In this document: positions 5,320 to 63,235 of the stretch, piece after piece
Layout: each line of letters opens with the position of its first letter
How positions within the stretch are numbered: position 1 is the first letter of the stretch
NCBI RefSeq assembly: GCF_006345805.1
Contig: NC_042999.1
Coordinates: 79,112,001-79,176,000, forward strand
Source: Octopus sinensis
Taxonomy: Eukaryota
DNA length: 64,000 nucleotides
Direction: 5' to 3'
Translations under genes and position numbers: made by a program
Notes under the pieces: generated by a model
The model's input: only the letters and a program-made list of their open reading frames with translations
The model's database searches: none
Told to the model about the DNA's origin: nothing

Positions 5320-5394
5320 CATAATATACATATATATATTTATACAGATGTGTTTATGTATGTATATATATATATGTGTATATATATATGTAAA

Positions 5395-5870
5395 ACTTGT
5401 GTTTCTTTCTTTCCTTCTGTTTCAGCTGGGGAGAGCAGAAGCATTCTTGTCTGTCTTCTCTCCAAGCTTACTCCTCCGCATTCGCCACCTCACCTCGTTT
5501 AGGCTTAGCACCCCTTCCTGTTTGTTTTCATTGTCCTGTTTTTGTTACCAATTTTGACCCTCCTCAAAATCCTAAATGTTATTTAATTTGCTTAGCGGGA
5601 GCAACTGTTTTATCGAAGGCGTATCTTGTCGCGAATTGTTCGAAATACGGATTATAAAAACAACTAACAACTGATGAGGGTCATTCTTTGTTTTGCTTGG
5701 CTTATTTTCCATTTGTTTCTCTTCTTGTTCGCAAAAAACGTTCATATTCCATGTATTCGTATTTCGTATTTCGTATTTCGTAATTCATGTTTTCGTATTT
5801 TATATTGTTTACGTTCTGTGATGTCCTGCGGCCAAACATGCATATGTATATACGTATATATGTAAGTATG
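5395..5870 (+). mobile_element. Non-coding interspersed repeat carrying a permuted HHR (copy 1)
   Basis: Homologous to the reverse complement of ~22050-22362; T-rich tail ending in tgtcctg..catatgtata; flanked by (TA)n. Confidence 0.65.
5620..5681 (+). ncRNA. Non-circularly permuted hammerhead ribozyme
   Basis: CGTAT-C^-TTGT-(8 nt)-GTTC-GAAA-TACG-(17 nt)-ACAA-CTGATGA-GGGT; AUC site; stems I and III covary relative to the 41166 and 47033 copies. Confidence 0.68.
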
Positions 5871-5924: not shown

Positions 5925-6006
5925 ATATATATATAATATATATATATATTATATTAAATTAGAGATAAAACCACTATTAGGCAAATCAAACAGTGAAAAA
6001 CATAAT

Positions 6007-6041
6007 GTTTCCGACGAAGAGCTCCGCTCGAAACGTTAAAC
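6007..6041 (+). ncRNA. Minimal type I hammerhead-like motif (variant core CCGACGA)
   Basis: GTTT-CCGACGA-A-GAGC-tcc-GCTC-GAAA-CG-TT-AAAC. Confidence 0.55.
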
Positions 6042-6150
6042 CCTCCTTCTTCCCTTCTTTCCTGAGCGTCTAATAATACTTTTATTTGTTCCACGTCCTT
6101 GCGTTGTTATGTTTTTTTGTTTTCTTGTTTGGATTAACTATATATATCTT

Positions 6151-6259: not shown

Positions 6260-6356
6260 TATATATATTACATTATATATATATATATATATTATATACA
6301 TATATACATACGTATGCTTACATATTTACATACATATATTTAAATATGCATATATG

Positions 6357-7160
6357 AAGGTGGGCTGAGGACGATAACATGCAGCTTAATGCAAGAAAAT
6401 TTAAAGCCCTGCGCTAACGGGATACACTGGTCCAGGTGGAACTGCAATGGCTGAATCAAAATCAGTGCGTGACCTGGAAAATAACATGAGCAATGTTGCA
6501 TCTTTTCAAATGCATATTACCAAATTGGTAATAAAATGTAGATGACTAGCTGGACGGGTCCTCCAATCTTTTGAAAACAAGAGAAAAGGAGAACATGATG
6601 GTGCTTTGGAAGGTACACGTTCTTAGCCGCTTGGACTACTGCTCCCAACTATGGTCATCACATAATATAAATTTAATGGCACAACTAGAAACAATCCAGC
6701 GAAGCTACACAAAGAAGATCGTCTCAATGGAATATATCAGCTACTAGAAAAGACTGAAAAAAGTTAAAACTCTTCTTTCTAGGACGAAGGCGGGCAAGAT
6801 ATGCAATGATATATATCTACGAAACCTTGGAAAGCCTTGTACTAAACGTTGGCATTCAAAGTTAGACAAACAGCAGAACAGGTTACCACTGCATAGTGCC
6901 AAAGATCCCAGCATCACCATTAAAATTCAGGACCAGATACGGCAAGAACTTGAATTTCAAGGGCCCACAGATCTTCAATATCTTTTCGAAATACCTGAAT
7001 GACCTGCATTGTGTGGATGTAGGTATTTTCAAAACAAAACTGGATCTCCTCCTGTTAAGCATTCCAAAGGAGCCTACCTCACGACGGGAAACACAGAGGA
7101 GGGCAGCAGTATGAAACACTCTCATTCAGCAAATACCAGTTATCAGAGGAGGTTTCAAGT
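6357..7160 (+). pseudogene. Decayed CR1/L2-group LINE ORF2 C-terminus
   Basis: Frameshifted motifs WAEDDNMQLNARKF, SVRDL, VLSRLDYCSQLWS, LETIQRSYTK, RRRARY, FKTKLDLLLLSIPKEP, with stops. Confidence 0.85.
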
Positions 7161-7624: not shown

Positions 7625-8170
7625 CGGGAAGCTTTATGAAAATAAACAAAAGACGAAGGCAGGTGGAAAACAAACGAACAATTGTATTAGTATGGCGCTC
7701 AGGAAATATAAATAAAACAAGTCTTTAGCGTTTCGAGCTCTACGCTCTTCAACAAAAGATAACACAGAGAGAGAAAACACAGAAAGGAGGAGAGAAAAAA
7801 AATGCGTGCAGTAGCTAACGAATCAACATGGCGATCTGATTTCGGCCAGAGGTCAAAGATCAACATGAGACCGAGAGCGAAATAAGGGGAGATAATAGGG
7901 TTGATAAAGGTTGAGGGACCAGCTAATAGTGCATGGAGGGGTCTGGATGTGTGTATGTATGGGGTTGGTGTATGTATTAGTATGTATAAGGGTGTGTGTG
8001 TGTGTGTGTGTGTATGAGAGAGTATTAGTGCGTAGGATTGGTCTGGACGTGTGTATGTATGGGGTTGGTGTATGTATTAGTATGTATTAGTATAATTAGT
8101 ACGTATTGGTATGTATAGGTGTGTGTTGTGTGTGTGTGAGAGAGTATAAGTGCGTATGCGGGGTATATAA
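7621..8170 (-). mobile_element. Minimal-HHR repeat with internal GT-rich tandem repeats
   Basis: 7624-7935 is a close reverse complement of ~20975-21301; followed by repeated gtctggacgtgtgtatgtatggggttggtgtatgtattag units. Confidence 0.7.
7722..7759 (-). ncRNA. Decayed minimal hammerhead-like motif
   Basis: Minus strand TCTTT-TGTTGA-A-GAGC-gtaga-GCTC-GAAA-CGCT-AAAGA; near-identical context to the 21168 copy. Confidence 0.4.
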
Positions 8171-8210: not shown

Positions 8211-8658
8211 ATATATATATTATATATATATATATACCTATATAAATATATATATATATAAGTGTATGTGTGTATACATGCCCAGTCTGGCATAAGAGCT
8301 TCTATGTGGCCGCAGCACAACAAGCAGACAAGCAGTAGTCAAATAGGGACTACTGCCTTGAAGAATTGATTATGGACGTCAAAAGCTAAGAGAACAATAT
8401 TAAAAAAAGTTGGGGTTACTAAATCAGTTGCATCGTAAGTTTACTATAAGCAAACTAATAAGATGAATTATGAATACAGCTAAAGTAGGATGAAGGACCC
8501 CACATAAATATTTAAAAATATACTGATAAGGTCATGAGACCTGTTGGGAAACCCGGTAACTAATGCTCTCTGTGGCTGCAGCCCACACAACTAGCATTTA
8601 GAAATGAAGGCTGAGAAATTTTGACAAGAACTAATATTATCACCACAAACTCAACATA

Positions 8659-9069
8659 GGCGCAGGAGTGGCTGTGTGGTAAGTAGCTTGCTAACCAACC
8701 ACATGGTTCCGGGTTCAGTCCCACTGCGTGGCATCTTGGGCAAGTGTCTTCTGCTATAGCCCCGGGTCGACCAATGCCTTGTGAGTGGATTTGGTAGACG
8801 GAAACTGAAAGAAGCCCGTCGTATATATGTATATATATATGTGTGTGCGTTTGTGTATCTGTGTTTGTCCTCCAAGCATTGCTTGACAACCGATGCTGGT
8901 GTGTTTATGTCCCCGTTACTTAGCGGTTCGGCAAAAGAGACCGATAGAATAAGTACTGGGCTTACAAAAGAATAAGTCCTGGGGTCGAGTTGCTCGATTG
9001 AAGGCGGTGCTCCAGCATGGCCGCAGTCAAATGACTGAAACAAGTAAAAGAGTAAAAGAGAGAAAAGAG
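8659..9069 (+). mobile_element. tRNA-derived SINE family A, full length
   Basis: A-box-like gtggctgtgtggt, B-box-like ggttcagtccc, ttgggcaagt core, internal (TA)/(TG), tail gactgaaacaagtaaaagag. Further copies at ~30865(-), 38625(+), 41525(+), 58646(+). Confidence 0.85.
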
Positions 9070-9606
9070 TATACAAATACCTCTTAACTGATAGAAAGTT
9101 CAATATTCCGCCCGAGTGATGAGGCGAACTGGCAAAATGCTTATCGGTATTTCGTTCATCTTTATTTTCTCAGTTAAAATGCCACTGAGGTCGACTTTGC
9201 CTATCATCCTTTCGGGGTCGATAAAATAATTACCAGTTGAGTACTGGGGTCGATGTAATCGATTTACCCGAACCTGCTGGCCTTGCGCCAAAATTTGAAA
9301 CCAATATTCCGCTTGAGTCTACATACACACTTCCCACTTAAAGCAAAGTCACCAATAAAAATGGCAAGCACATGAAGGAATTTATGTAACAGCAACCTTG
9401 TTGCAAGTAATACAAGATTTCAGAACTGTACAAAGTAGGATCTGAACATATCATCTCTGTGGCAGCCTCGCTCAAGTGGACCACATCCTAGCTAAAAGAA
9501 ATAGTAGATAATAGTATAGAAACTTCATGTGCGTACAACAAATACGGGAATGTTAAATCTAACCACTGACGGTTAATGTAAAAGCTAATTGGCATTCACA
9601 ATTATA

Positions 9607-13158: not shown

Positions 13159-13769
13159 ATATTTACCTGTGTGTGTCTACGTAATTGTACGTTTGTGTAT
13201 AATATATACACACATACATGTTTGTATGTGTATGAGTGTGTATGTATGTATTATGTATGTATGCATATATGTCGGTCTGTCTGTCTGTATGCATGTATGT
13301 GGGTATGCGCATGTGTATGTATGTATGTATGTATGTATGTATGTTTGTATGTATGTATGTATGACGTATAGTCATTCTTCGGTAGCTCTGTTTTCTCTAA
13401 ATAACCCAAGATTTAGGGATACAAAATTATGCTCAATATTTTTTCAATGTAAGATTTTCCCCGTCTGTTCCGTATTCAACTTGCTTCACTTCATTTGATC
13501 TCACTCCATCTCACTTAAATCCACCCCTCATCATATTTCAACTTTAAGGAGAGGAAGGACAACCATCCAATGAATTTTGTACTGAGTTGCTTTTCATCCC
13601 CATTCAAAAACCAATGCACGAAGAATATGGAAATACAATAGAAATATTTATGAAATACTTTACTGTATTCAGTCCATTTCAAATACTCCGAGGAAGTCAA
13701 GCAAATGACCGTCATAACAGCTTCTGTCCCCAACCTCTATGTTTAAAAACAAATAATAACATATAAAAA

Positions 13770-14336
13770 GGTCTGAAATTTTGGGAGAGGGGGTCAGTCA
13801 ATTAGATCGACCCCAGTACGCAACTGGTACTTAATTTATCGACCCCGAAAGGATGAAAGGCAAAGTCGACCCCGGCGGAATTTTAACTCAGAACATAAAG
13901 ACAGACGAAATACCTAAGTCTTTACTACCCACGAGGGGCTAAACACAGAAGGGACAAACAAGGACAGACAAACGGATTAAGTCGATTATATCGACCCCAG
14001 TGCGTAACTGGTACTTATTTAATCGACCCGAAAGGATGAAAGGCAAAATCGACCTTGGCGGAATTTGAACTCAGAACGTAACGGCAGACGAAATACCGTT
14101 AAACATTTCGCCCGGCGTGCTAACGTTTCTTATTTCTTTATTGCCCACAATGGGCTAAACATAGAGGGGACAAACAAGGAGAGACAAAGGGATTAAGTCG
14201 ATTACTTCGAGCCCAGTGCGTAACTGGTACTTTATTTATCGACCTCGGCGAAATTTGATCTCAGAATGTAACGGCAAACGAAATACCACTAAGCATTTCG
14301 CCCGGCGCGCTAACGTTTCTGCCAGCTCGCCGCCTT
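13770..14336 (-). mobile_element. SINE family B multimer
   Basis: Three repeated gtcga..cggcggaattt.aactcagaac modules; head aaggcggcgagctggcagaaacgttagc. Confidence 0.85.
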
Positions 14337-16813
14337 ATAAAATGTAAAATATTATAGAACAACTTTGTAAGCCTATCATATTGTTGTTGTCTTGTTACAT
14401 TGTTGCTGTTTAGATCCAAGTTAGAACCGATTTATGATCACAATTTCTTTCACCTTTGACTATCCCATCTTTTATTTTTCCTGATATAGTGTCTCTAGTA
14501 TCGCACTATCCAATGTGACCGTCTTTTGTTTGCAATAGTATAGAATGGTTTCGAGGAAATTTAGCTGGAATTCCTTGTAGCTTGAGCAACAACTCTTATG
14601 CATTTTTGATACAACAGTGCGTGACTGAATCGTTAGAGTTGTAGGCAAAATATTTTGTGATGTTTGAGTTACTTCACTGTAAGTTCTAGGTTCAAATCCT
14701 GCCCAGGCAGCGAATTGGCAGAGTTAGAGTATTTGAACAGAATACATCTTGGTATTTAATCTTACTGTCTCTGCTCTGAGTTCAAATTCCACCGAGGTCT
14801 ACATTGCCTTTCAACCTTTCGGGGTTGATAAATTAAGTACCAGATGCATACTGAGATCGACTGGCTCTTCCCCCAACATTTCGAGCCTTGTGCTTAGAGT
14901 AACAAAAAAAAAAAAAGACAATCTTCTTATATAAAACCATATATTTAAAACCACTCACTGTTTTTAAAATAAAAGAATAATCGATGAGAAAAAAATCCAT
15001 GGAAACAGTTTAAAGTAGTGGTTGGATGAATTGTTTGAGAGTCAGGCAGAGTACTGAGTTGTAATAGCGTACGTAGTTGATAAAACTAGCAGGATTCGAT
15101 TTACTAGAGACGAAATTATCAAAACTATTCTTAATGGCAGTGTCATAGCAAAACTACAAACTAATGACTACAAAGGAAAATAAATTAAATTAAATGTCTA
15201 AAATTTAATGAAATTTAATAAGTTTGACGGTCGAAGTTATGATGGTAGTAACTTTGTGAAAGAGAAAATGTATGGTGTTTATCATATATCCCGGCTTATC
15301 CGAGATAACACCACACCTGTAGCACATCACGCCCAGCTATTCTAAAGCAAATCATAAAATATATCGTAAGATTATTGGATGGCAGAATCAGTAGAGCAAC
15401 CGAGAAAATGTCATATGCTCTTTGGACCCGACATATGTGAGCTTAAATATTTCCTGGGTCGATTAAATCTGACGACGTACATCATTCCGAGGTCGATAGA
15501 AATAACACATATTAAGTAGTCAAATCTTGGGTTGATAAAATCAAATACCCTCTTTGAAGGCGATGCTCCAGTATGGTCGTAGCCTAATGTCTAATGTAAC
15601 AGAATGAAAAGAATAACCGAGTCAATAACATTCTGTACTTTACTTCATTTCACTTCATTCAAAACAAGTCTTAACATCGAAAAAGACAAAATAGGCGTCA
15701 CCAACAAAACCTCACCCTTACCCTCAAATACCCACTTTCTTTTCTCCCGTTGTCCTACTAATTTAAAAGCAAATAATAAAATACAATAACGTAGTAAAGT
15801 ATAAGATAATAACAGAAATGGTAGGCATCTTGTCTATGTAGGGAAAGCATTATTATTTCAAAGTGTAGACATTGTAGAGATAATTACAGTATAAATATTG
15901 GTGTTGCATTTCACATAGAGAATCTTTTATTACCCCAGGAGCTAAATTTCCAGTGACTAATCTCAATTATTATAAATAGTTAAGCTACTTGTCTTCAAGC
16001 AGCAGCATCAACTTACAAAAATAAAAATGGTCACTTCGAAATGTGTAATTGGTTTGAAAGCGAATTGGTTGAGTGGTGGTGGAGGTGATAGCGATGGTGA
16101 TGGTGATATGATGGTGATGGTGGTAGTTATGATGGTCGTGGTGTTGATAGCGGTGGTTATGATGGCTATGGTGATAGTTGTTGTTGTTGTGACGCTGGGG
16201 AAGGGGCTAGGGCGTAGATGTGGTGGTGGTGGAGGGGTGGGGGAGTAGACGGCAATCAGGAATTCCCATCAGCCAATCAAATAAAATAGAAAAAGAAAGA
16301 TAAACACGAACAAAAAGGATTGGGAAAAATGAAGGCGAAGGAGAAAGAAAGGTAGGATACGGAAGCCAAAGAAAACACGAAAGAGGAAAAAAGAAAGGAA
16401 CGAGGAAAGAAGGGAAAATTACAGAAAGAAAGAAGACACAGAATATTCTGAAATTCAAGAAATTTAAGTGTTTTCCAATAGTTTCATGACCTGCAAATAA
16501 TAATGTTGAAGTGATTTCGGGTAAGAATGGTAAGTACATGACGTTTAAATTTACCATTACTTCGGTTGCTTACTGAACTCTTTCGTCTTATTATATAAAC
16601 AGCAAGAAGGTTGCTCTTCTTTCCTCATGGGATGGGGGGGGGTCTACTTACGTATGCATATATGTATGTATGTATGTATGCATGTATGTATGAATGTATG
16701 TACGTATGTATGTAGGTACGTCTCTCTCTCCCTATATATATATATATATATATAATATACATACATATATATATATACATATACACATATATATAGTGCA
16801 TGTGCGTAATGAT

Positions 16814-16846
<33 letters not shown>

Positions 16847-16989
16847 GCATTATATGCATGTATATATATATATATTGTGTGTGTATACATGTATAATATA
16901 TATGTATATGTACATATATATATATATATTATATATATATATATATTGTATATAATATATTATATATATTATATATATATATATATATC

Positions 16990-17212
16990 CAAAGCGATCA
17001 GAGGTACTTGCCGAGCCATAGACACATAAGGCCAGTTTCCGGGGGTCTTTGACGTATATATTCCCCTTCCGTTGACTGCTGAATGGACTGGAGTAACGCG
17101 AAATGAAGTGCCTTGCTCAAGAACTCAATGCATTGCTCATTTCAGGAATCGAAATCACAATCGTATGATCATGAATGCAACACCCTAACCAATTAGCCAC
17201 TCGTCTCCTCCT
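16990..17212 (-). mobile_element. SINE family C head/core with a third tail (duplicated at ~19693-19920)
   Basis: Head ggaggagacgagtggctaattggttagggtgttgcattcatgatcatacg; core cttgagcaaggcacttcatttc. Confidence 0.75.
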
Positions 17213-17247
17213 ATATATATATATATATAGATACATAAATATATATG

Positions 17248-17287
<40 letters not shown>

Positions 17288-17292
17288 ATATA

Positions 17293-17346
<54 letters not shown>

Positions 17347-17367
17347 CTATATATATATATATATATA

Positions 17368-17467: not shown

Positions 17468-19632
17468 CTTACTGTCTCTGCTCTGAGTTCAAATTCCACC
17501 GAGGTCTACATGCCTTTCAACCTTTCGGGGTTGATAAATTAAGTACCAGATGCATACTGAGATCGACTGGCTCTTCCCCCAACATTTCGAGCCTTGTGCT
17601 TAGAGTAACAAAAAAAAAAAAAAGACAATCTTCTTATATAAAACCATATATTTAAAACCACTCACTGTTTTTAAAATAAAAGAATAATCGATGAGAAAAA
17701 AATCCATGGAAACAGTTTAAAGTAGTGGTTGGATGAATTGTTTGAGAGTCAGGCAGAGTACTGAGTTGTAATAGCGTACGTAGTTGATAAAACTAGCAGG
17801 ATTCGATTTACTAGAGACGAAATTATCAAAACTATTCTTAATGGCAGTGTCATAGCAAAACTACAAACTAATGACTACAAAGGAAAATAAATTAAATTAA
17901 ATGTCTAAAATTTAATGAAATTTAATAAGTTTGACGGTCGAAGTTATGATGGTAGTAACTTTGTGAAAGAGAAAATGTATGGTGTTTATCATATATCCCG
18001 GCTTATCCGAGATAACACCACACCTGTAGCACATCACGCCCAGCTATTCTAAAGCAAATCATAAAATATATCGTAAGATTATTGGATGGCAGAATCAGTA
18101 GAGCAACCGAGAAAATGTCATATGCTCTTTGGACCCGACATATGTGAGCTTAAATATTTCCTGGGTCGATTAAATCTGACGACGTACATCATTCCGAGGT
18201 CGATAGAAATAACACATATTAAGTAGTCAAATCTTGGGTTGATAAAATCAAATACCCTCTTTGAAGGCGATGCTCCAGTATGGTCGTAGCCTAATGTCTA
18301 ATGTAACAGAATGAAAAGAATAACCGAGTCAATAACATTCTGTACTTTACTTCATTTCACTTCATTCAAAACAAGTCTTAACATCGAAAAAGACAAAATA
18401 GGCGTCACCAACAAAACCTCACCCTTACCCTCAAATACCCACTTTCTTTTCTCCCGTTGTCCTACTAATTTAAAAGCAAATAATAAAATACAATAACGTA
18501 GTAAAGTATAAGATAATAACAGAAATGGTAGGCATCTTGTCTATGTAGGGAAAGCATTATTATTTCAAAGTGTAGACATTGTAGAGATAATTACAGTATA
18601 AATATTGGTGTTGCATTTCACATAGAGAATCTTTTATTACCCCAGGAGCTAAATTTCCAGTGACTAATCTCAATTATTATAAATAGTTAAGCTACTTGTC
18701 TTCAAGCAGCAGCATCAACTTACAAAAATAAAAATGGTCACTTCGAAATGTGTAATTGGTTTGAAAGCGAATTGGTTGAGTGGTGGTGGAGGTGATAGCG
18801 ATGGTGATGGTGATGATGATGGTGATGGTGGTAGTTATGATGGTCGTGGTGTTGATAGCGGTGGTTATGATGGCTATGGTGATAGTTGTTGTTGTTGTGA
18901 CGCTGGGGAAGGGGCTAGGGCGTAGATGTGGTGGTGGTGGAGGGGTGGGGGAGTAGACGGCAATCAGGAATTCCCATCAGCCAATCAAATAAAATAGAAA
19001 AAGAAAGATAAACACGAACAAAAAGGATTGGGAAAAATGAAGGCGAAGGAGAAAGAAAGGTAGGAAAGACGGAAGCCAAAGAAAACACGAAAGAAGGAAA
19101 AAAGAAAGGAACGAAGGAAAGAAGGGAAAAATTACAGAAAGAAAGAAGACACAGAATATTCTGAAATTCAAGAAATTTAAGTGTTTTCCAATAGTTTCAT
19201 GACCTGCAAATAATAATGTTGAAGTGATTTCGGGTAAGAATGGTAAGTACATGACGTTTAAATTTACCATTACTTCGGTTGCTTACTGAACTCTTTCGTC
19301 TTATTATATAAACAGCAAGAAGGTTGCTCTTCTTTCCTCATGGGATGGGGGGGGGTCTACTTACGTATGCATATATGTATGTATGTATGTATGCTGATGT
19401 ATGAAGGTATGTACGTATGTATGTAGGTACGTCCTCTCTCTCCTATATATATATATATAATATATAACATACATAGATATATATACATATACACATATAT
19501 ATATGTGCATGTGGTATGATCGTGTGTGTATATATCTATATATATATATATATGCATTATATGCATATTATATATATATATGTGTGTGGTGTATACATGT
19601 ATATATATATGTATATGTACATATATATATAG

Positions 19633-19694
<62 letters not shown>

Positions 19695-20107
19695 CAAAAG
19701 CGATCAGAGGTACTTGCGAGCCATAGACACATAAGGCCCAGTTTCCGGGGGTCTTTGACGTATATATTCCCCTTCCGTTGACTGCTGAATGGACTGGAGT
19801 AACGCGAAATGAAGTGCCTTGCTCAAGAACTCTCAAGCATTGCTCATTTCAGGAATCGAAATCACAATCGTATGATCATGAATGCAAACACCCTAACCAA
19901 TTAGCCACTCGTCTCCTCCTATATATAGATATCTATAGATACATAAATATATATGTATTACACAACACAACACACACACACCACACACATGATAATAAAT
20001 AATATATATATATAATATTATATATTATAAATACATATATATATATATATGATATATATATATATAATATATATTGTTATATTTCGGATTGGTCATATTG
20101 CCAGTTT

Positions 20108-21301
20108 AGACCCCTCATACGCACTTATACTCTCTCATACACACACACACACACTTATACATACTAATACGTACTAATACATACTAATACATACTAATAC
20201 ATACACCAACCCCATACATACGCACGTCCAGACCAATCCTACGCACTAATACTCTCTCATACACGCACACACACACACACACAACAATCTTGCACAACAA
20301 ATATTTAAACGTATATATATATACATATATATATATGCATATATACATATGTATATGTATATACTTACATCTATACGTCTTCCCTCTTTCTCCCTCCCTC
20401 CTTCCCTCTTCCCCTTCCCTCTGCTCCCTCACTCCCTCTCTCCCCTTCTCTCTCCCCCTCTCCCTCTTTCCTCCTTCCTCCCCCTCCTCCCCTTCCTTCT
20501 CCCCCTCCTCTCTCTCCCCCTCCTCTCCTCTTCCCCCTCTCCTCCCCATCTTCTTCCCCTCCCCTTCTCTCCCCCTCTTCTCCTCCTCTCTCCCTCTTCT
20601 CCTCACTACACCACACGACTTTACACATCACATCATATATGATGTGCCATACTAATACATACACCAACTAATACATACTATACGTACTAATACATACTAA
20701 TACATACTAATACATACACCAACCCTATACATACCACGTCCAGACCCCTCATACGCCACTTATACTCTCTCATACACACACACACCCACTTATACATACT
20801 ACTATACTACTAATACATACTATACTACTAATACATACACCAACCCCATACTACGCACGTCCAGACCAATCCTACGCACTAATACTCTCTCATACACGCA
20901 CACACACACACACACACACCCTTATACAAATAAATACATACACCAACCCTATACATACACCGTCCAGACCCCTCCTACGCCTATTAGCTGGTCCTTCTAC
21001 CCTATTATCAACCCTATTATCAACCCTATTATCTCCCCTTATTTCGCTCTCGCGTCTCATGTTTGATCTTTGACCTCTCGCCGAAATCAGATCGCCATGT
21101 TGATTCGTTAGCTACTGCACGCATTTTTTTCTCTCCTTCTTTCTGTGTTTTTTTTTCTCTCTGTGTATCTTTCTGTTGAAGAGCGTAGGCTCGAAACGTT
21201 AAAGACTTGTTTATTATATTTCCTGAGCGCCATACTAATACAATTGTTCGTTTGTTTTCCACCTGCCTTCGTCTTTTGTCTATTTTCATAAAGCTTCCCG
21301 T
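20108..21301 (+). mobile_element. Minimal-HHR repeat (inverted relative to the 7621 copy), interrupted by a pyrimidine tract
   Basis: ctaatacatacaccaaccccatacata..cacgtccagacc units followed by the unique HHR-bearing part. Confidence 0.7.
21168..21205 (+). ncRNA. Minimal type I hammerhead-like motif (variant core CUGUUGA)
   Basis: TCTTT-CTGTTGA-A-GAGC-gtag-GCTC-GAAA-CG-TT-AAAGA; palindromic ACGT in place of stem III. Confidence 0.55.
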
Positions 21302-21354
21302 TTATATATATATATTATATATACTATATATATATATATATATATATATTGTAT

Positions 21355-22010
21355 ATGCCCTCTATAAATATAAATGAATATTTTCAAGTGAAAAAAATAT
21401 TTTCGGATTTTTTCTCTTATGAGGTTTTTCACGCTAACTACCTGATAATTTCTTGTTAAGATTTCCTTATTAAGATTTTATCCTTAATTGTTAAATTATA
21501 TATATATAATTTATATATAGAGGACATTATTATACATACATGCCACACGCTTAAGAGGGACAAAATTAGTCATTTCTACCAAAAATTTTACTAATCCCCC
21601 GAATGCAATTTTCAAAGTAAGACATTTAAAAAATATGGACTTGTATCACCTGTGATTTCATACTCTGTATTCATCAGCAAGTCTGGACGCATCATAAATA
21701 AACGAACCCAACTCGTCTAAAGCCGAGCACTATCTGATCAACTTCAACGAAGAACATGGGTGGGTTTACATATTTACATCCGTAAATCGCAGACTTTTAC
21801 GAATTGCATTTCGGGAAAGGAAAGGTTTTTTTCGGAATAAAAATTTAGCAATTATGGACAACTTCTTAATAAGGAAACTTAATAACAAGAAATTATCGGG
21901 TAGATAGCGTGAAAAACCTCATAAAAGAAAAAATTTCGAAAATAATTCTTTCTTATTGAACATATTAATTTATATATAGAGGGCATTATTATACATACAT
22001 GCCACACGCT
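21355..22010 (-). mobile_element. Penelope-like pseudo-LTR structure / retrozyme-like unit carrying an HHR
   Basis: 45-bp direct repeats 21507-21551 and 21966-22010 (459-bp period); ~143-bp inverted copy 21355-21497 vs 21842-21986; HHR inside; (TA)n on both sides. Confidence 0.6.
21638..21683 (-). ncRNA. Complete type I hammerhead ribozyme
   Basis: Minus strand GACTTG-CTGATGA-ATAC-aga-GTAT-GAAA-TCAC-ag-GTGA-TA^-CAAGTC; all three stems are Watson-Crick paired and the core is intact. Confidence 0.8.
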
Positions 22011-22039
22011 ATATATATATATATATATATATATAGATA

Positions 22040-22628
22040 TGTATGTATGTATATATATATGCATAGGTGGACACAGGACGTCACGAAACGTGTACAACAA
22101 AATAATACGAAGTACGAGAATATGGAATATGAACTATTTTTTCGAACAACGAAAGACACAAATGGAAAACAAGACGAACAATATAAAGAACACCCTTCAT
22201 CAGTTGTAGTCTGTTTTTTTTTGCTCTCGTATTTCGATCATTTAACAACAATATATGCTTTCAATAAAACAGTTGCTCTCGTTAAGCAAATTAAATAAAA
22301 TTTGGGATTTTGTGGAGGGTCAAACAGAACAGTGAAAACAAACAAGGGAGGGCTGCTAAGCTTCAAGATTTCAGGATCCAAATTTCAGTGTTTAGTTTGC
22401 AATGAAGAGAATTTGGGTGTTGTACAGACTGAGGTTGTCCGACTGGTCAATATCCTGCTTGCTCCAGATCGATGGTAAGCCAGTATCCAGTTTGCTACAG
22501 ATCGGTGGTAAGCGCGTATATAAATAATATTATACTTATGACAGTCTAATAAAATCCTATCGTTTATCATTACACACTGGTATGTTGGATATACGTAATA
22601 AGTCCCCATACAAAGTGCACGTTACAAA

Positions 22629-22630
<2 letters not shown>
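22040..22630 (-). mobile_element. Same repeat family (copy 2)
   Basis: Shares gcttagca..cc..tgtttgttttca..tgaccctcc.caaaatcc.aaat.ttatttaatttgctta with copy 1; bounded by (TA)n. Confidence 0.6.
22193..22257 (-). ncRNA. Decayed non-circularly permuted hammerhead
   Basis: Minus strand CATAT-A^-TTGT...GATC-GAAA-TACG-(20 nt)-ACAA-CTGATGA-A-GGG; mismatches in stems II and III; flanks homologous to the 5620 copy. Confidence 0.55.
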
Positions 22631-23579: not shown

Positions 23580-24275
23580 TGAGTATGTGTGTGTGTGTGC
23601 GCCCGGTCATGTGTGCATTCTGACTGTTGTGTGTGTGTGTGTGTTTGTGTGTGTCTGTGCCTGCGTTTACGTCCCCGTAACTTAGCGGTAGAACAAGTAC
23701 TGGACTTTAAAAATATGTCCCGGAGAAGATTCGTTCAACTAAAACCCTTCAAAGTGATGCCCTAGCATGGCTGCATTCAAATTAACTGAAACAAATAAGA
23801 AAAAAAGAGAGAAAATATATAAATATATAGAGTAGCTGTGTGGTAAGTAGTTTGCTTACCAACCACATGATTCTGCGTTCAGTCCCACTTCGTGGCTGAC
23901 TAGAGCCTTGTCAGTGGATTTGGTAGACGGAAACTGAAAGAAGCTCGTTGTATATATATATATATATATATTATAATATTATATATATATATATATATTT
24001 ATATGTGCGTGCGCGCGCGCGCTTGTGTGCGTGTGTGTGTGTATGTGTATGTGTGTGTGCATATGCTTGTGTGTCTGTATTTGCCCCTACCGTCGATTGA
24101 TAACCAATGTTGGTGTGTTTATGTTCCCGTAATTTAGCGTTTCGGCAAAAAAAAAAAAAAAAACCGATAGAATATGAACTGGTTTACAAACAGTATGTCC
24201 TGGGGCCGATTTGATCCAACTAAAGGCGGTGCTCCAGCATAGCTGCAGTCAAAATGACAAATAAAAGAATAAAAT
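23359..24275 (+). mobile_element. Two tandem SINE family A copies
   Basis: Copies at ~23359-23810 and ~23830-24275. Confidence 0.8.
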
Positions 24276-24277
24276 AA

Positions 24278-24542
24278 TATATATGGAAGATACTGGAAGG
24301 ACTGGTACCAAACTTTGGAATAAAGAGCTATACCAGACCATGAACAGGACGTCACTGTGCTGTCCCTACTGTGCCGACTGCTTCATCTCGGGCAAGGACG
24401 ATGTACTGCAATAGCTTGGATTTCAAGAGCCCACAGCTGTTTAACTGTCTGCCGAAGCATCTGAGGAGCTTCCATGGAGTGGATTTAGATGTTTTCAAAC
24501 GTGAACTTGACCTCTGGCTCACCGGGATCCCGGATGAGCCAA
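24278..24542 (+). pseudogene. CR1/L2-group LINE ORF2 3' fragment
   Basis: IWKILEGLVPNFGI...PQLFNCLPKHLR...FKRELDLWLTGIPDEP; homologous to 6810-7075. Confidence 0.8.
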
Positions 24543-24674
24543 TATATTCCTATAAATACAGTGTACAATTAAACAAATAAGAGGTATCCTTCATAGGATT
24601 CTTTTCAGGCTATGAAGGCTACCTCTTATGTGTTTAAATGTACACTGTATATATATATATATATATTTAATTTT

Positions 24675-26528: not shown

Positions 26529-27262
26529 AAGAAAGAGAAAGAAAAGAGAGAGAGGGCAAGTGCATGAGAGAGAAGAGAAAGGAAAGAAAGAGAAGAGAGA
26601 GAAAAAAAGAGAGGAGCAACAGGAAACAGCTTGAAGACAAACCACTGCAACGAGAACAAAAGCAACAGGAACGATATGAAAAACAAAAGCAAGAACAACA
26701 ACAGCAACATAAGTAACACCACCATCCCTACCACATCCACCACCACCACCACTACCTATAACAAGAACACCCATATTGGCTACAGCAGCAGAAATAGCAC
26801 CAGCCTATTACAGCACATTACACCATTTACGATTTTGTTATATACTCTCCTCAGAAGTCTTCCTCTTGGCAATACCGAATGACGCTGTAATCAGTTATTG
26901 CTGATCAATTAAGAAATGCAATAATGCTTTCCATCTAAAAGAGGGATTATTTCCTGATATTTAGCTATATTACGAATTTCCCATAGGTTAATCATTAGAA
27001 ATCGCTTAAATTTCTTGTGGAGTCTTTCGCTTTCTGAAACCTTGCTTTCTTTTCTTTTTTTTTTCTATATCTCTGTTTATTCCTTTTTCTCACTTCTCTC
27101 TCCTTCTCTATCTATCTATCTCTCAACAAACACACACACACATGTTTGTACGTATGTATAATATACATACGTACATATATCATATGTTGTACAAGTACAC
27201 ATATACATGTAAATGTCTCTGTATCTATGTAACTATGTATGTACGTGTGTGTGTATGTATAC

Positions 27263-28569: not shown

Positions 28570-28576
<7 letters not shown>

Positions 28577-28810
28577 AAACATATTTAGAAATGGATGCGT
28601 GCGGTTCTTGTATTGTATGTCCTATTTTTTTTTGTTGTTTAAGAAAAAAGTCCATTTCCGTGGTTTTGTGTTTATGTTTTCGTTTCTGATTGTGTTCGAC
28701 GTTTTTTTGGTGTCCTGTACCCATATATGCATGTATATATTCATGTAGATGTAGGTACGTACATATATGTATGTATATATGCATATGCTTTATTTATTAA
28801 TTTGTTATTA
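28570..28810 (+). mobile_element. 5'-truncated copy of the same family lacking the HHR
   Basis: Tail aligns by eye to 41235-41470. Confidence 0.55.
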
Positions 28811-29964: not shown

Positions 29965-30290
29965 AAGACCCCCCTTCGGTCATGAGTGACCATGGGTTGC
30001 ACCTAGAGAGTTACCCTCTGAGGCACAAGTCTGGGCAAGGTTGTTTTATGGAAGACCAGTAGTCGCCCATGCATACCGGCCTCCCCTCTCCACGCCACCA
30101 GTGTTATCCAAGGGAAAGACAAAGGTCGATACAGCTTGGCACCTGTGACGTCGCAACTCATTTCTATAGCTGAGTGAACTGGAGCAACGTGAAATAAAGT
30201 GTCTTGCTCAAGAACACAACACACAGCCCGGTCCGGGATTCGAGCTCACAACCTCACGATCGTAAGCTCGACGCTCTAACCACTGAGCCA
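29965..30290 (-). mobile_element. SINE family C head/core with a different tail
   Basis: Head tggctcagtggttagagcgtcgagcttacgatcgtgaggttgtgagctcgaatccc; same core as 48381; distinct ~190-bp tail. Confidence 0.8.
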
Positions 30291-30479
30291 AGAAAACACA
30301 AAAAAAACAAAAAAAAACACAACAACGCGAGGACGTGGAACAAATATAGTATTATTGGACGCTCAGGAAAGAAGGGAAGAAGGATGGTTTAACGTTTCTT
30401 CGTCGGAAACATAGGAGAAGGAAAGAACCCGAGAAGGGAAGACAGAGGGAAAAAAATCGACAACGGTACTCACGAGGTC

Positions 30480-30547: not shown

Positions 30548-30823
30548 TATTAGGGAGTAAATCCAAACTTACAGGGAAAAATTAGATTTAGGATTAAATC
30601 CAATTTTATAGTATAAATATATTTATTAAAAAAAAAAAATAAAAATATAAAAATATACATATATATATATATTAAAATTTATAAGTTTAAATTATTTAAT
30701 AATTTTTAAATTTTAACTTTTACATTTTTTAAATTGATTTTATTTCTATGTATTGGCTTATGATTTTCACTGTTTGATTTGCCTAATAGTGTTTTTATCT
30801 CTAATTTAATATTATATATATAT

Positions 30824-30866
<43 letters not shown>

Positions 30867-40869: not shown

Positions 40870-40987
40870 AAGTCTGATGAAGTGCTTCCCCAATGACTAC
40901 AACTGAAAATATTACGAGGTTTTCCATTTATAATTTAAGCGTCAACTAGCGTTACAAATAGAGATGGCACGGAAACTTTTGTAACTT
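40870..40987 (+). ncRNA. Type I hammerhead candidate with ~80-nt insert in stem II
   Basis: AAGT-CTGATGA-A-GTGC...(81 nt)...GCAC-G-GAAA-C-tttt-G-TA^-ACTT. Confidence 0.5.
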
Positions 40988-41016: not shown

Positions 41017-41392
41017 TTGTCTCCTTTTTTTCATTGGGTTCTTTATTTGTACTGTTTTTTTCTTCATTTGTATTGCTTTTACGTCCTGTTCTTGTCACTT
41101 TTTTTACCCCTCTGCAAAAGAATTTTATTTAATTCATTTTGCAGGAAGGATTGCTTCGGTCGTATCGTGTTCTGCCCTTACCTTCGAAACACGCATTGAG
41201 TCGAAACAGGGGCAGCTGAAGAAGGGGAATATTCCTTGTATTGTTTGTCTTGTACTCTGTTTTTTCGTTGTTAAAAAAAGTCCGTTTCCTTGTTTGATTT
41301 TATATTTTCGTTTCTCGTTGTGTTCTACGTTTATTCATGGTGTCCTGTACTCATATATGCATGTATATATACATATAGATGTAGGTATGTAC

Positions 41393-41425
<33 letters not shown>

Positions 41426-41470
41426 TGTATGTATGTATGTATGTATGCATATGTTTTATTTATTAAATTG
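41017..41470 (+). mobile_element. Same repeat family, second subfamily (copy 3)
   Basis: ttttatttaatt..permuted HHR..T-rich..tgtcctgtac.catatatgcatgtatatat..tagatgtagg tail, shared with 46987 and 28570. Confidence 0.65.
41166..41227 (+). ncRNA. Non-circularly permuted hammerhead ribozyme
   Basis: CGTGT-T^-CTGCCCTT-ac-CTTC-GAAA-CACG-(14 nt)-AGGGGCAG-CTGAAGA-A-GGGG; 8-bp stem I, GUU site. Confidence 0.72.
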
Positions 41471-46986: not shown

Positions 46987-46989
<3 letters not shown>

Positions 46990-47345
46990 ATTTTATTTTA
47001 ATTCTCTCGAGAGAAGGCCTAGCATGACCAGACGTGTCCTGTCTTGCCTTCGAAACACGCTATGTCTGCTAGCGACAGCTGATGAAGGGGATTTTTCCTT
47101 GTGCAGCATGTCCTGTACTTCGTTTTTCTGCTGTACACAATTGTTTTTCCCGTTTTCGTTTCGTCTTGTTCCACGTCTCTGTCCTTCTGTTGTAACAAAA
47201 TGGCTTTTCCGTTTTCGTTTCTGTTGATTTTTACGTCTTCTTGTGGTGTTCTGTACGTATATATATTTATATATGCATGTATATATACATGTAGATGTCG
47301 GTACGTACATATATGTTTGTATGTATGCATATATTTTATTTATTA

Positions 47346-47350
<5 letters not shown>
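46987..47350 (+). mobile_element. Same repeat family (copy 4), inside (TA)n
   Basis: Same HHR and 3' tail as copy 3; long (TA)n on both sides. Confidence 0.65.
47033..47090 (+). ncRNA. Non-circularly permuted (pseudoknotted) hammerhead ribozyme, best-preserved copy
   Basis: CGTGT-C^-CTGTC-ttgc-CTTC-GAAA-CACG-(14 nt)-GACAG-CTGATGA-A-GGGG. Stem III CGTGT/ACACG, GUC site, stem I CTGTC/GACAG, stem II CTTC/GGGG; core intact. Confidence 0.75.
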
Positions 47351-47533: not shown

Positions 47534-47687
47534 ATGTATATAATTGTTAAAGAGGTCAACAAACGTTAAGGCAAGACAAACTTCTCAAATCATATACGTT
47601 ATTATTTTTCCAATAATAATAACGTATATTACTTGAGATGTTTGTCTTGCCTTAAAGTTTGTTGTCCTCTTTAACAATTATATACAT
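47534..47687. repeat. Long fold-back inverted repeat
   Basis: ~73-bp arms (47534-47606 / 47615-47687) with few mismatches and an 8-nt spacer. Confidence 0.9.
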
Positions 47688-48380: not shown

Positions 48381-48635
48381 GGAGGCGCGTGGCTTAGTGG
48401 TTAGGGTGTCAGCATCATGATCGTAAGATTGTGGTTTCGATTCCTGGACCGGGTGACGCGTTGTTCTTCTTGAGCAAAACACTTCATTTCACGTTGCTCC
48501 AGTCCACTCATCTGGCAAAAATGAGTAACGCTGCGATGGATTGGCGTCCCATCCAGCTGGGGAACACATACGCCATGAAAACCGGGAAAATGGGCCCATG
48601 AGCTTGGCTAGGCTTTAAAAGGGCGCATTTATCTT
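48381..48635 (+). mobile_element. tRNA-derived SINE family C
   Basis: ggaggcgcgtggcttagtggttagg..gtttcgattcc head, cttgagcaa..cacttcatttcacgttgctccagtcca core. Confidence 0.85.
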
Positions 48636-54212: not shown

Positions 54213-54222
54213 CTGAAAAAGA

Positions 54223-55604: not shown

Positions 55605-55647
55605 GCCTCTGATGAGAACCCAATAAGGTTCGAAAATTGATTAAAGT
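55605..55647 (+). ncRNA. Type I hammerhead candidate, partly decayed, antisense within the ARID3 intron
   Basis: CTGATGA-GAACC-caataa-GGTTC-GAAA-ATTGAT-TA; perfect stem II, weak stem I. Confidence 0.45.
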
Positions 55648-61614: not shown

Positions 61615-62993
61615 CATGTATACACAGACCAATGATATGTGTGTGCATATATATGTATATATATATACACACACACACATTTACATATACACACACATTT
61701 ACATATGTATACATATATATATATATAAATATTCATGGACACATAACACAAGCGTGCGCACATACACATATGCACACATAATATAATATTGAGTACTTTG
61801 TACCCAATGTCGTCTGTAAATACTGCATATTATCATTATTATATGTGTAGTCTTCGTGAACGTGTATGTACGTCTGTTTGAGTATATATGTGCGAGCATA
61901 GATAGCTAGATAGCTAGATAGATAGATAGATAGATAGCTAGATAGATAGATAGATGGATAGATGGATAGATAGATAGATAGAAGAAGTTTGATGTGTGGG
62001 TGTGTCTAGGAGAGCAAGCTATTATGTATAGAAAACTATACTGAACTCATACTGAACTGAAAGAAACTTTGATAGAATATCTCAGACATGCGAATCCAAA
62101 GACACACCTTACGACGTTAGAGCGGTATTTTTAGAGCGTTACAGTATTTTTTCTGATTATCTGCGCTCAGTCTTACTATGAAACTTGGCTACACTATAAT
62201 ATAAGAGAGCTGTGAGAGGCCATTGTTTCTGCATGACGTTCTTTCAATCCCATCTTAGGTCCATATGCCGTAAAAAATTGATTTTCTATATATACTATGG
62301 GGCGTTAAGATATACTTGAAAAAACCTGACCGCGAGGTCTCTGTCAGCCCAAATAAGTTAACTGATGATGTAAATTTATTATTCTACAGTTCTCTAGGTT
62401 ATGCTGTATATGTTTTTATAGCTTTGTTACTAATGATATATCTGATTTAAGGAAATCTGAGGGGAGTAGGCTAATTGATACTACCGACACTGGTACTTTA
62501 TTTTATCAGCCCCGAAAGGATGAAAGGCAGGGTTGATCTCTGCGAAATTTGAAATCAGAATGTAAATAAACGGATCAAACAACGCATATGTTTTCCTGTA
62601 ATCTAGCGCTTCTGCCACCTCACCGCCATTTTAATATTGGTTTGAAATTTTGGCATAAGGCCAGCAAGTTCGGTGGGGAGGGTGTAAGTCGATTACATCG
62701 ATCCCAGTATTCCTCTGGTACCGATTTTATCAACCCCAGTGCTCAATATGAAAGGCAAATTCTAGCTCGCTGTAAATTGCACTCAGAAAGAAATACTAAC
62801 GATGCTACCAGCACGCCGCATTTTTTATATTAATAATTAAACGTAATGTGTGTGTATATGTGTGTGTATGTGCGCGCGCGTGTGCATGCATGTATGTATG
62901 CATGTATGTATACATGTATACATATGTGTGTCTGTGTTTCAGAAAAATTTCATTTTTTTTTCTTATCCCACCCCAGGAAATATAATTACTCAC

Positions 62994-63227
62994 TCCTACT
63001 TGTAATTTTAATGTGAGCACTCGGCATTCCGGCGTGAACCAGTAGTCGTTCCTCTTCTGACATTGCAAGACGTTTCCTTGGAGGGCTTTCTTCGACAGCA
63101 GCTCGTGAAGCAGCTTCCATTTTTCGGGTCGCTTCTTCCATCGCTCTAGATGCAGCTTCCATTGCCAGCGCATCTCTTTCTGATAGACTACGTGACTGCA
63201 GCGGTGTTGATGGCATACTGTCATCAT
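62994..63227 (-). CDS. ARID3: Penultimate coding exon of an ARID3/dead ringer (retained)-like transcription factor, N-terminal part of the REKLES domain
   Basis: Acceptor ttttcacag|AT and donor AGGA|gtgagt; 234 nt, phase 1-1. Translation xDDSMPSTPLQSRSLSERDALAMEAASRAMEEATRKMEAASRAAVEESPPRKRLAMSEEERLLVHAGMPSAHIKITSR resembles ARID3 REKLES (PPxKK..EQQRL..PxSIRI). Splices in frame to the 54212 exon. Confidence 0.9.
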
Positions 63228-63235
63228 CTGTGAAA

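Follow-up and report, generated by a model that had tools for sequence, protein, structure and literature searches.

Hammerhead ribozymes of type SGC, in which the cleavage site (S), the GAAA block (G) and the CUGANGA block (C) follow one another in a non-circularly permuted order, were named by Eckert et al. (2023), who found them only in metatranscriptomes though RefSeq release 85 was searched (PMC10085705). The available text of that report gives no type-SGC ribozyme from the genome of a known organism, the word 'Octopus' is absent from its available supplement text, and the route by which a non-circular permutation evolves is left open (PMC10085705). The published ribozymes cleave in cis with linkers of 0–44 nt and at rates of 0.007–0.19 per min, and four helices are required; the search patterns were restricted to CUGAUGAG or CUGAUGAUG with linkers no longer than 15 nt (PMC10085705). 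A 2026 paper cites these permutations, in its available text, without a new host (PMC13725137).

Penelope-like elements (PLEs) carry minimal hammerheads that have a base between positions 9 and 10.1 and a G10.1–C11.1 pair and occur mostly as single diverged motifs (Cervera and de la Pena 2014; PMC4209133). The Poseidon reverse transcriptase of Anolis nicks AT-rich DNA, uses uncleaved RNA and starts internally, 3′ of the hammerhead, at two sites, which gives rise to an optional tail; it assists its own ribozyme, and cleavage is dispensable in vitro (PMC11167929). The microsatellite (TA)n bias of PLEs hides target duplications, the PLE tail measures 30–40 bp, and hammerheads are lacking from the Naiad PLEs, whose targets are (TA)n and which are present in Octopus (bioRxiv 10.1101/2021.04.23.441226). 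Solo pseudo-LTRs have been described for PLEs (PMC3846280), and the O. vulgaris genome is reported to consist of PLEs to 6.83%, in 190 families (PMC13282606). Retrozymes are made up of tandem units and have hammerheads of type I (PMC7229834; bioRxiv 10.64898/2026.07.22.740005). New in the present case is the combination of two known things, a type-SGC hammerhead within a PLE-like animal repeat. Neither octopus hammerheads nor an SGC hammerhead from any animal genome turned up in the literature searched; subscription journals, bioRxiv supplements or the Zenodo library of PMC13282606 may hold one.

A repeat family with ends in TA tracts

The window, which is the whole stretch of 64,000 nt analysed, contains five copies of the repeat (Table 1), the number given in the first-pass annotation. 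BLAST and nhmmer on the repeat-masked window agreed on these five. The nhmmer matches were located at 5480–5841 (+), 22383–22061 (−), 28587–28722 (+), 41044–41352 (+) and 46989–47257 with 47294–47348 (+); their E-values ranged from 1.6e-26 to 7e-71 with a profile built from the same five copies that it recovers. No sixth copy with an E-value better than 1e-3 was found in the masked window. A profile-independent alignment gave 57–80% identity for all ten copy pairs (z 2.9–23 against locally shuffled partners), the weakest pair, copies 1 and 5, being beaten by at least one of 200 shuffles. Copies 1 and 2 (71% identity) form lineage A, copies 3 and 4 (80%) lineage B, and copy 5, with 59–63% identity to lineage B, represents lineage B′. 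The copies are 220–470 nt in size and have a GC content of 31–38%.

Table 1. Positions of the repeat copies, their predicted ribozymes and a second hammerhead-bearing repeat family in the window
Feature	Position	Strand	Remarks
Copy 1, lineage A	5393..5860	+	between TA tracts; 230 nt 5′ of cleavage site retained
Copy 2, lineage A	22056..22366	−	71% identity to copy 1
Copy 3, lineage B	28572..28806	+	tail and 3′ extension only, no ribozyme block; TA tracts on both sides
Copy 4, lineage B	41017..41470	+	likeness to lineage A from about 41073; left boundary uncertain, not at TA
Copy 5, lineage B′	46987..47348	+	TA tracts on both sides; begins 50 nt 5′ of cleavage site
SGC hammerhead, copy 1	5620..5682	+	S 5620–5629, G 5638–5649, C 5667–5682; predicted cleavage after C5625 (triplet AUC); G12 = 5642; C3 = 5671; stem II weak
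Degenerate SGC hammerhead, copy 2	22188..22257	−	cleavage-site base A22252; G12 = 22235; C3 = 22203
SGC hammerhead, copy 4	41166..41227	+	stems I/II/III 8/4/5 bp; core CUGAAGA-A-G; predicted cleavage after U41171 (GUU); G12 = 41186; C3 = 41216
SGC hammerhead, copy 5, best preserved	47033..47090	+	stems I/II/III 5/4/5 bp; core CUGAUGA-A-G; predicted cleavage after C47038 (GUC); G12 = 47052; C3 = 47079; stem I–stem II link 3 nt
End motif and 3′ extension, example from lineages B/B′	47274..47345	+	candidate Penelope-type optional 'tail'
Second repeat family	5956..6145	+	PLE-type minimal hammerhead words (hammerhead at 6011), T-rich tail, TA end
Second repeat family	7625..7790	−	as above; hammerhead at 7740
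Second repeat family	21140..21303	+	as above; hammerhead at 21200
Second repeat family	30290..30440	−	as above; hammerhead at 30400

The ribozyme, taken earlier as common to the family, is present in four of the five copies and lacking in copy 3, whose truncation to the tail was confirmed. Likewise, the words that were said to be shared do recur, but in degenerate form and not letter for letter: ttttatttaatt upstream and the 3′ end words tgtcctgtac and catatatgcatgtatatat are each exact in two of the five copies. Downstream of the end motif, copies 3, 4 and 5 continue for approximately 70 nt to TTTATTTATTA at 28789, 41455 and 47335, the extension of copy 4 reaching 107 nt through a TATG expansion. 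The extension, found in three of the five copies, is tied to lineage (B and B′). The distance from the cleavage site to the end motif was 221, 196, 194 and 243 nt in the four ribozyme copies, the two long spacings being due to internal repeats in the respective tails (a 7-nt tandem expansion in copy 1 and a 59-nt internal duplication in copy 5).

The association of the ends with TA repeats was borne out. A (TA)5 or longer run lies within 40 nt of the 3′ end in all five copies (background 5.8%) and the 5′ end lies within 5 nt of a TA run in three of five (background 1.7% at 10 nt); the ends were set by eye, partly where TA begins, and these counts are not blind. Copy 4 and the shared part of copy 2 do not start at TA. 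A readable target duplication was not found and would be unreadable inside the TA tracts. In copy 2, a further 264 nt of unshared sequence extends to a TA tract at 22630 and may or may not belong to the copy; it includes a 33-nt direct duplication (85%) at 22448–22513, and for the first half of its frame no relative was found among longer proteins, which is weak evidence.

Ends at the cleavage site, for which the first-pass annotation had proposed a check of RNA data, were not seen among the DNA copies. All four ribozyme copies start upstream of this site and retain 50 to at least 230 nt of preceding sequence, and lineages A and B still share sequence about 100 nt 5′ of it (z 3.3; 4 of 300 shuffles). 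Copy 5 has a similar T-rich word at its start (46987–47000) and its end (47330–47345), and the closing word of the lineage B copies resembles a word located 40–50 nt 5′ of the cleavage site; such recurrences may be due to chance in AT-rich DNA.

In agreement with the earlier description, there is no tRNA in the window, and the copies show neither an ORF nor, TA tracts apart, terminal inverted repeats. For three copies, the 12 frames examined upstream contained no Pfam family above cut-off (coverage in the window comprised 15 short frames and two ORFs), and translated copy 4 had no protein relatives in two libraries. Extrapolation from this one window (Poisson range 1.6–11.7 copies, times 43,750 windows of a 2.8-Gb genome) suggests a copy number near 10⁵ per genome. 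A repeat library may already list this repeat under some name.

Hammerhead blocks in the type-SGC order

In the four ribozyme copies the block order is cleavage site, GAAA, CUGANGA. The ribozyme had rightly been called permuted before; its order is the non-circular type SGC. A descriptor that allowed all six block orders and demanded stems of at least 4/3/4 bp matched three SGC hammerheads, with cleavage-site bases 5625, 41171 and 47038, and at 21677 (−) a single hammerhead of the ordinary type I. Three of the four ribozyme copies passed this strict descriptor; copy 2, which fails it, has one broken stem III pair and stays in register in the alignment. SGC matches arose by chance in 2 of 100 locally shuffled windows, i.e. 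0.02 per window. This rate, the missing terminal inverted repeats and the combination of one fixed with one ragged end largely refute a derivation from a DNA transposon (a MITE or Helitron fragment in TA sites that carries a ribozyme motif by accident), which we regard as hardly credible. TA is the target site of Tc1/mariner elements, and the TA flanks are compatible with such sites.

The core bases (CUGANGA, GAAA, UH and G10.1–C11.1) are intact in all four copies, the word TCGAAA is fixed, and each ribozyme has an extra nucleotide, A or G, between A9 and G10.1. The search patterns of Eckert et al., which we re-implemented, gave no match in the window; with CUGAUGAAG or CUGAAGAAG instead, they returned the ribozymes at 47079 and 41216. 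The published patterns thus miss the octopus copies since they do not allow the Penelope-type extra nucleotide after A9. RefSeq release 85 held an octopus genome. Owing to this blind spot, such ribozymes may hide in other animal genomes. The octopus ribozymes have the S–G–C order, the full core, an extra base after A9, covarying stems and a short stem I–stem II link (in copy 5, 3 nt) in common with published SGC ribozymes (HRIMA-1 and SGC variants; PMC10085705). They differ in having A or G in place of the U of the published search pattern, and a weak stem II where the published ribozymes have a Watson–Crick stem II and a required fourth helix, for which no shared register was seen here; moreover, the published ribozymes stem from metatranscriptomes, whereas the octopus ribozyme, whose activity is predicted, lies in an interspersed animal repeat (PMC10085705).

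Other assignments of the blocks were rejected. A type II reading, with UH between the G and C blocks, has candidates in three of the four copies with a stem I of just 0–1 bp; for a type I reading, a downstream GAAA is present in one of four copies, within an A-rich word of the tail; in circularly permuted readings stem I fails; and GCS pairings with the downstream T-rich sequence, at a 3-bp stem III, are weaker and less stable. Rfam returned nothing at the gathering score for the window and, for two copies at E-values up to 5, sub-threshold TA-driven microRNA-like and other matches but no hammerhead family. The SGC pattern had four matches in bacterial and archaeal genomes, which is about the chance level estimated by hand, and none of them resembles the repeat.

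In the four-row alignment, 51 of 56 paired cells (91.1%) can pair, compared with 30–61% in controls with slid partners. Changes on both sides occurred in 4 of 14 pairs (two in stem I, one in stem II and one in stem III), three of these on the single branch between the lineages, and exchanging strands between lineages abolished pairs in stems I and III. Shuffled alignments matched the paired fraction in 9, the covariation score in 3 and the number of double-changed pairs in 202 of 500 cases. The covariation rests on four related rows, from which the structure itself was drawn, so that it lends the three stems modest support and not proof. Taken with the intact core, we regard the SGC fold as very probable.

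Three copies have sound stems I and III, with stacking energies of −5.2 to −16.9 and −7.0 to −8.9 kcal/mol, respectively. Stem II is weak. All four copies have a G–U at 10.2–11.2, lineage A has only two continuous pairs, and in both B copies stem II reaches −4.1 kcal/mol vs −8.7 kcal/mol for an off-register pairing that hides G8 and A9; in addition, a competing local hairpin (−3.6 and −3.9 kcal/mol) follows the core. The G strand of copy 2 pairs with the C strand of copy 1 in seven of seven positions, which suggests that the ancestral stem II was longer. For the fourth helix there is no common register among the copies: duplexes between linker and downstream sequence exist in registers that differ from copy to copy, and the T-rich tail pairs easily. 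Given the weak stem II, cleavage probably depends on the help of a protein or on a dimer. It is expected from these predicted energies to be slow, assisted or dimeric, and most genomic copies are expected to be decayed.

In a variant with the same host element, the monomer never adopts the knotted fold. Two ribozyme copies would have to join head to tail, the CUGANGA block of each being donated to its partner's loop, and a unit-length RNA would be excised by the two pseudo-LTRs of a single precursor. The weak stem II counts towards this variant, and so does a helix between upstream sequence and the G-to-C linker that would extend stem III. This helix can be drawn in all four copies, with differing sequences, and ends 0–4 nt before stem I; if it forms, the linker would on geometric grounds be too short for a monomer, favouring a dimer. 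Dimer action of PLE hammerheads was reportedly described by Lunse et al. in 2017. Minimal hammerheads of PLEs have been reported as dimers (PMC4209133; PMC6765202), whereas the published SGC ribozymes cleave in cis with their linkers of 0–44 nt (PMC10085705). Shuffled sequences reached the stem III extension in 284, 24, 444 and 84 of 1000 cases for the four copies, with a combined p of 0.036 for all four and of 0.17 or 0.03 with one copy per lineage; an unanchored test was not significant (564, 235, 1620 and 186 of 2000), and a copy's own partner was sometimes not the best one. We consider an obligate dimer possible but doubtful. Somewhat less likely still is a particular history, in which local duplication and block loss turned the minimal hammerhead of an octopus Penelope lineage into a non-circularly permuted ribozyme acting as a domain-swapped head-to-tail dimer between two pseudo-LTRs. 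If true, no other known non-circular RNA permutation would come near it in abundance, at about 10⁵ copies per genome; it would be the first in an animal genome, and its origin could be traced through dated subfamilies.

The SGC order could also be a dead relic, that is, a minimal PLE hammerhead that was duplicated and decayed, and whose remaining complementary blocks are carried along by an amplifying repeat without cleaving any more. Relic-like words do occur (the S block is preceded in lineage A by a GAAA-like box, the G block is followed in three of four copies by a UH-like hairpin, and another hairpin comes after the C block), and the weak stem II with its stronger inactive register would fit. 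On the other hand, all core bases are intact in the four copies despite drift to 57–60% identity, and double changes restore pairs in the SGC register. Since neutral decay does not explain such pair-restoring changes, we consider a relic quite unlikely.

Penelope-like elements and a proposed route of mobilization

Our best explanation, which we hold with moderate confidence, is that the repeat is the pseudo-LTR end of an octopus PLE lineage whose hammerhead was rearranged to the SGC order. For the link to PLEs taken by itself, as regards both origin and mobilization, we are more confident and call it likely. The copies would be solo or 5′-truncated pseudo-LTRs, or would have spread as a non-autonomous derivative. 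Both hammerhead traits of PLEs, the base between 9 and 10.1 and the G10.1–C11.1 pair, were found in the four octopus ribozymes, as was, in the repeat, a fixed 3′ end downstream of the hammerhead together with 5′ truncation and an AT-rich microsatellite target. A 4–5-bp stem I and the occurrence as diverged single copies are further features in common with the minimal hammerheads of PLEs; these are, in contrast, of type I (CGS) with a palindromic stem III of 1–2 bp (Cervera and de la Pena 2014; PMC4209133), whereas in the octopus ribozymes the blocks stand in SGC order, stem III is a genuine helix of 5 bp and stem II is short. The type I minimal topology with a palindromic helix III is thus not that of the octopus ribozymes. 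Fixed 3′ ends past the ribozyme and AT-rich targets are shared with Anolis Poseidon (PMC11167929). The 3′ extension of the octopus copies may correspond to the optional tail, but at about 70 nt it is longer than the 30–40-nt tail of PLEs (bioRxiv 10.1101/2021.04.23.441226). This length and the lack of hammerheads in Naiad PLEs speak against the link.

The first-pass annotation had considered the repeat to be a Penelope-dependent, non-autonomous family. Penelope dependence gains from the core signature in four of four ribozymes, the fixed 3′ and variable 5′ ends, the TA targets and the candidate optional extension, but no RT or GIY-YIG ORF, for which a check beside the copies had been proposed, was found next to any of the five in the Pfam and protein searches. 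For this reason we call the dependence probable. The ORF list contained no PLE ORF elsewhere in the window, and no tandem or inverted pair of pseudo-LTRs was found, all five copies being single. As to a non-autonomous family, the copies are indistinguishable from truncated stubs of an autonomous element.

In the mechanism that we propose, the ribozyme strand would be made by RNA polymerase II, either from an upstream pseudo-LTR or by read-through; Pol III is disfavoured by the T runs. Judging from sequence and covariation, the RNA is able to form a hairpin with stem III as its closing helix, whose loop exposes the cleavage site and GAAA; CUGANGA, lying 3′ of the hairpin, could dock on it through stems I and II. 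Cutting would be slow and aided by the element's protein or by a second copy, and would process long precursors. By analogy with the Anolis PLE, the RT-endonuclease may nick TA-rich DNA and start reverse transcription at one of two fixed sites, approximately 195 or 265 nt 3′ of the cleavage site, and the RT may then copy uncleaved RNA through the ribozyme and halt at random. An internal start on an uncleaved template with a random stop would fix the 3′ ends in (TA)n, leave the 5′ ends ragged and retain upstream sequence.

That the hammerhead core survived a change of topology speaks for selection on cleavage or on the fold, a question not decided by the Anolis work. Furthermore, a high-copy genomic family would offer thousands of aligned, datable copies, in which covariation and the route of rearrangement are directly testable.

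The description as retrozyme-like did not hold. A stand-alone retrozyme, with units cut to monomers, circularized and reinserted from circular RNA, would leave the present copies as solo monomers. Size (220–470 nt) and GC content (31–38%) fit animal retrozyme units (PMC7229834), monomers often occur solo and an origin of retrozymes from PLE pseudo-LTRs has been argued (bioRxiv 10.64898/2026.07.22.740005), and the T-rich word at both ends of copy 5 could be read in this sense. Animal non-LTR retrozymes are also, like the repeat, short, non-coding, low in GC, hammerhead-bearing and probably mobilized by PLE proteins (PMC7229834; bioRxiv 10.64898/2026.07.22.740005). However, there is neither terminal redundancy nor a tandem array (0 of 15 alignments of upstream sequence against body exceeded z 2), and the upstream sequence common to three copies differs from the tail. 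Since tandem units, of 150–450 bp in retrozymes, are absent and the hammerhead is not of type I, membership fails, and we consider this origin improbable.

We also considered a Pol III-transcribed, tRNA-derived SINE whose B box overlaps the GAAA block, similar to the hammerhead SINEs of schistosomes. Copy 1 has an A box and a B box with one mismatch each, 50 nt apart (the window holds 11 such pairs vs 1–8 in 20 shuffles), and TCGAAA is fixed in all four ribozymes; scoring used an assumed A/B-box consensus. In the other three copies the A box has 2, 4 and 4 mismatches, so that it is near the consensus in one copy of four. Each copy contains 3–10 runs of four or more T, one of them directly after the A box of lineage A. 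Runs of this kind would stop Pol III. Neither a tRNA nor an A-rich 3′ end is present, and the element reaches at least 100 nt 5′ of the cleavage site. The O. vulgaris genome is reported to hold hundreds of unclassified SINE families (PMC13282606). With the SINE-like elements of Schistosoma, the repeat has in common that it is short, bears a hammerhead and, in one copy, shows a weak A/B-box match, but it differs in its T-run-rich strand, unconserved boxes, non-tandem arrangement and topology (PMC6765202). A SINE origin is therefore highly improbable, in our view even more so than a relic.

Further hammerheads and the surroundings of the repeat

A second repeat family with PLE-type minimal hammerhead words has the same layout as the SGC repeat, and its members are 60–93% alike (Table 1). 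Sequence similarity between the two families was not found, with 1 of 20 pairs at z 3.2 and 17 of 20 below z 1. The common layout speaks for the PLE link of the SGC repeat, the missing similarity against it. The member at 5956 comes immediately after copy 1 of the SGC repeat, with a TA tract between the two, and a second occurrence of its left part is located at 30758–30865. The ordinary type I hammerhead, at 21635–21685 (−), is well formed, with stems of 6/4/5 bp and C3 at 21677. It shares the strand of copy 2, 370 nt downstream of which it lies between the inverted repeat arms 21303–21497 and 21842–22059. More CUGANGA words occur at 55609, 41835, 39942, 40874 and 53863 (all +). Those at 55609 and 41835 have a stem II of 5–6 bp and GAAA with poor stems I and III, and the one at 40874, 342 nt upstream of the copy 4 core, gives only a weak 3/3/4 SGC match.

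GC content varies from 27 to 41% across the window in 2-kb steps, and microsatellites are many. An exon at 62989–63228 (−), 98% identical to the O. bimaculoides and 96% to the O. vulgaris protein, belongs to ARID3/dead ringer and forms, with the final conserved coding exon at 54213–54112 (−), the last two coding exons of this gene; all five repeat copies therefore lie past the conserved stop. Under one isoform model from O. vulgaris, with extra exons at 26804–26643 and 25158–25009 (−), copies 3–5 would be intronic and antisense to ARID3. Both of these exons are repeat-like, and the isoform is probably an annotation artefact.

A direct duplication of 2.6 kb with 97.9% identity (14761–17367 and 17468–20071) flanks an N run and is probably an assembly duplication. 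Broken frames at about 6350–7150 (+), where Pfam found nothing, and at 24270–24500 (+) resemble, by eye, the 3′ end of a LINE reverse-transcriptase ORF. Two palindromes, at 47534–47687 (91%, 154 nt) and 24542–24664 (80%, 123 nt), are possibly MITE-like. Two abundant families of SINE-like repeats are represented at 8657–9079 and 13766–14370, with numerous further matches in the window, and tRNA-like A/B-box heads are present at 48390 (+), 30290 (−) and 32551 (−).
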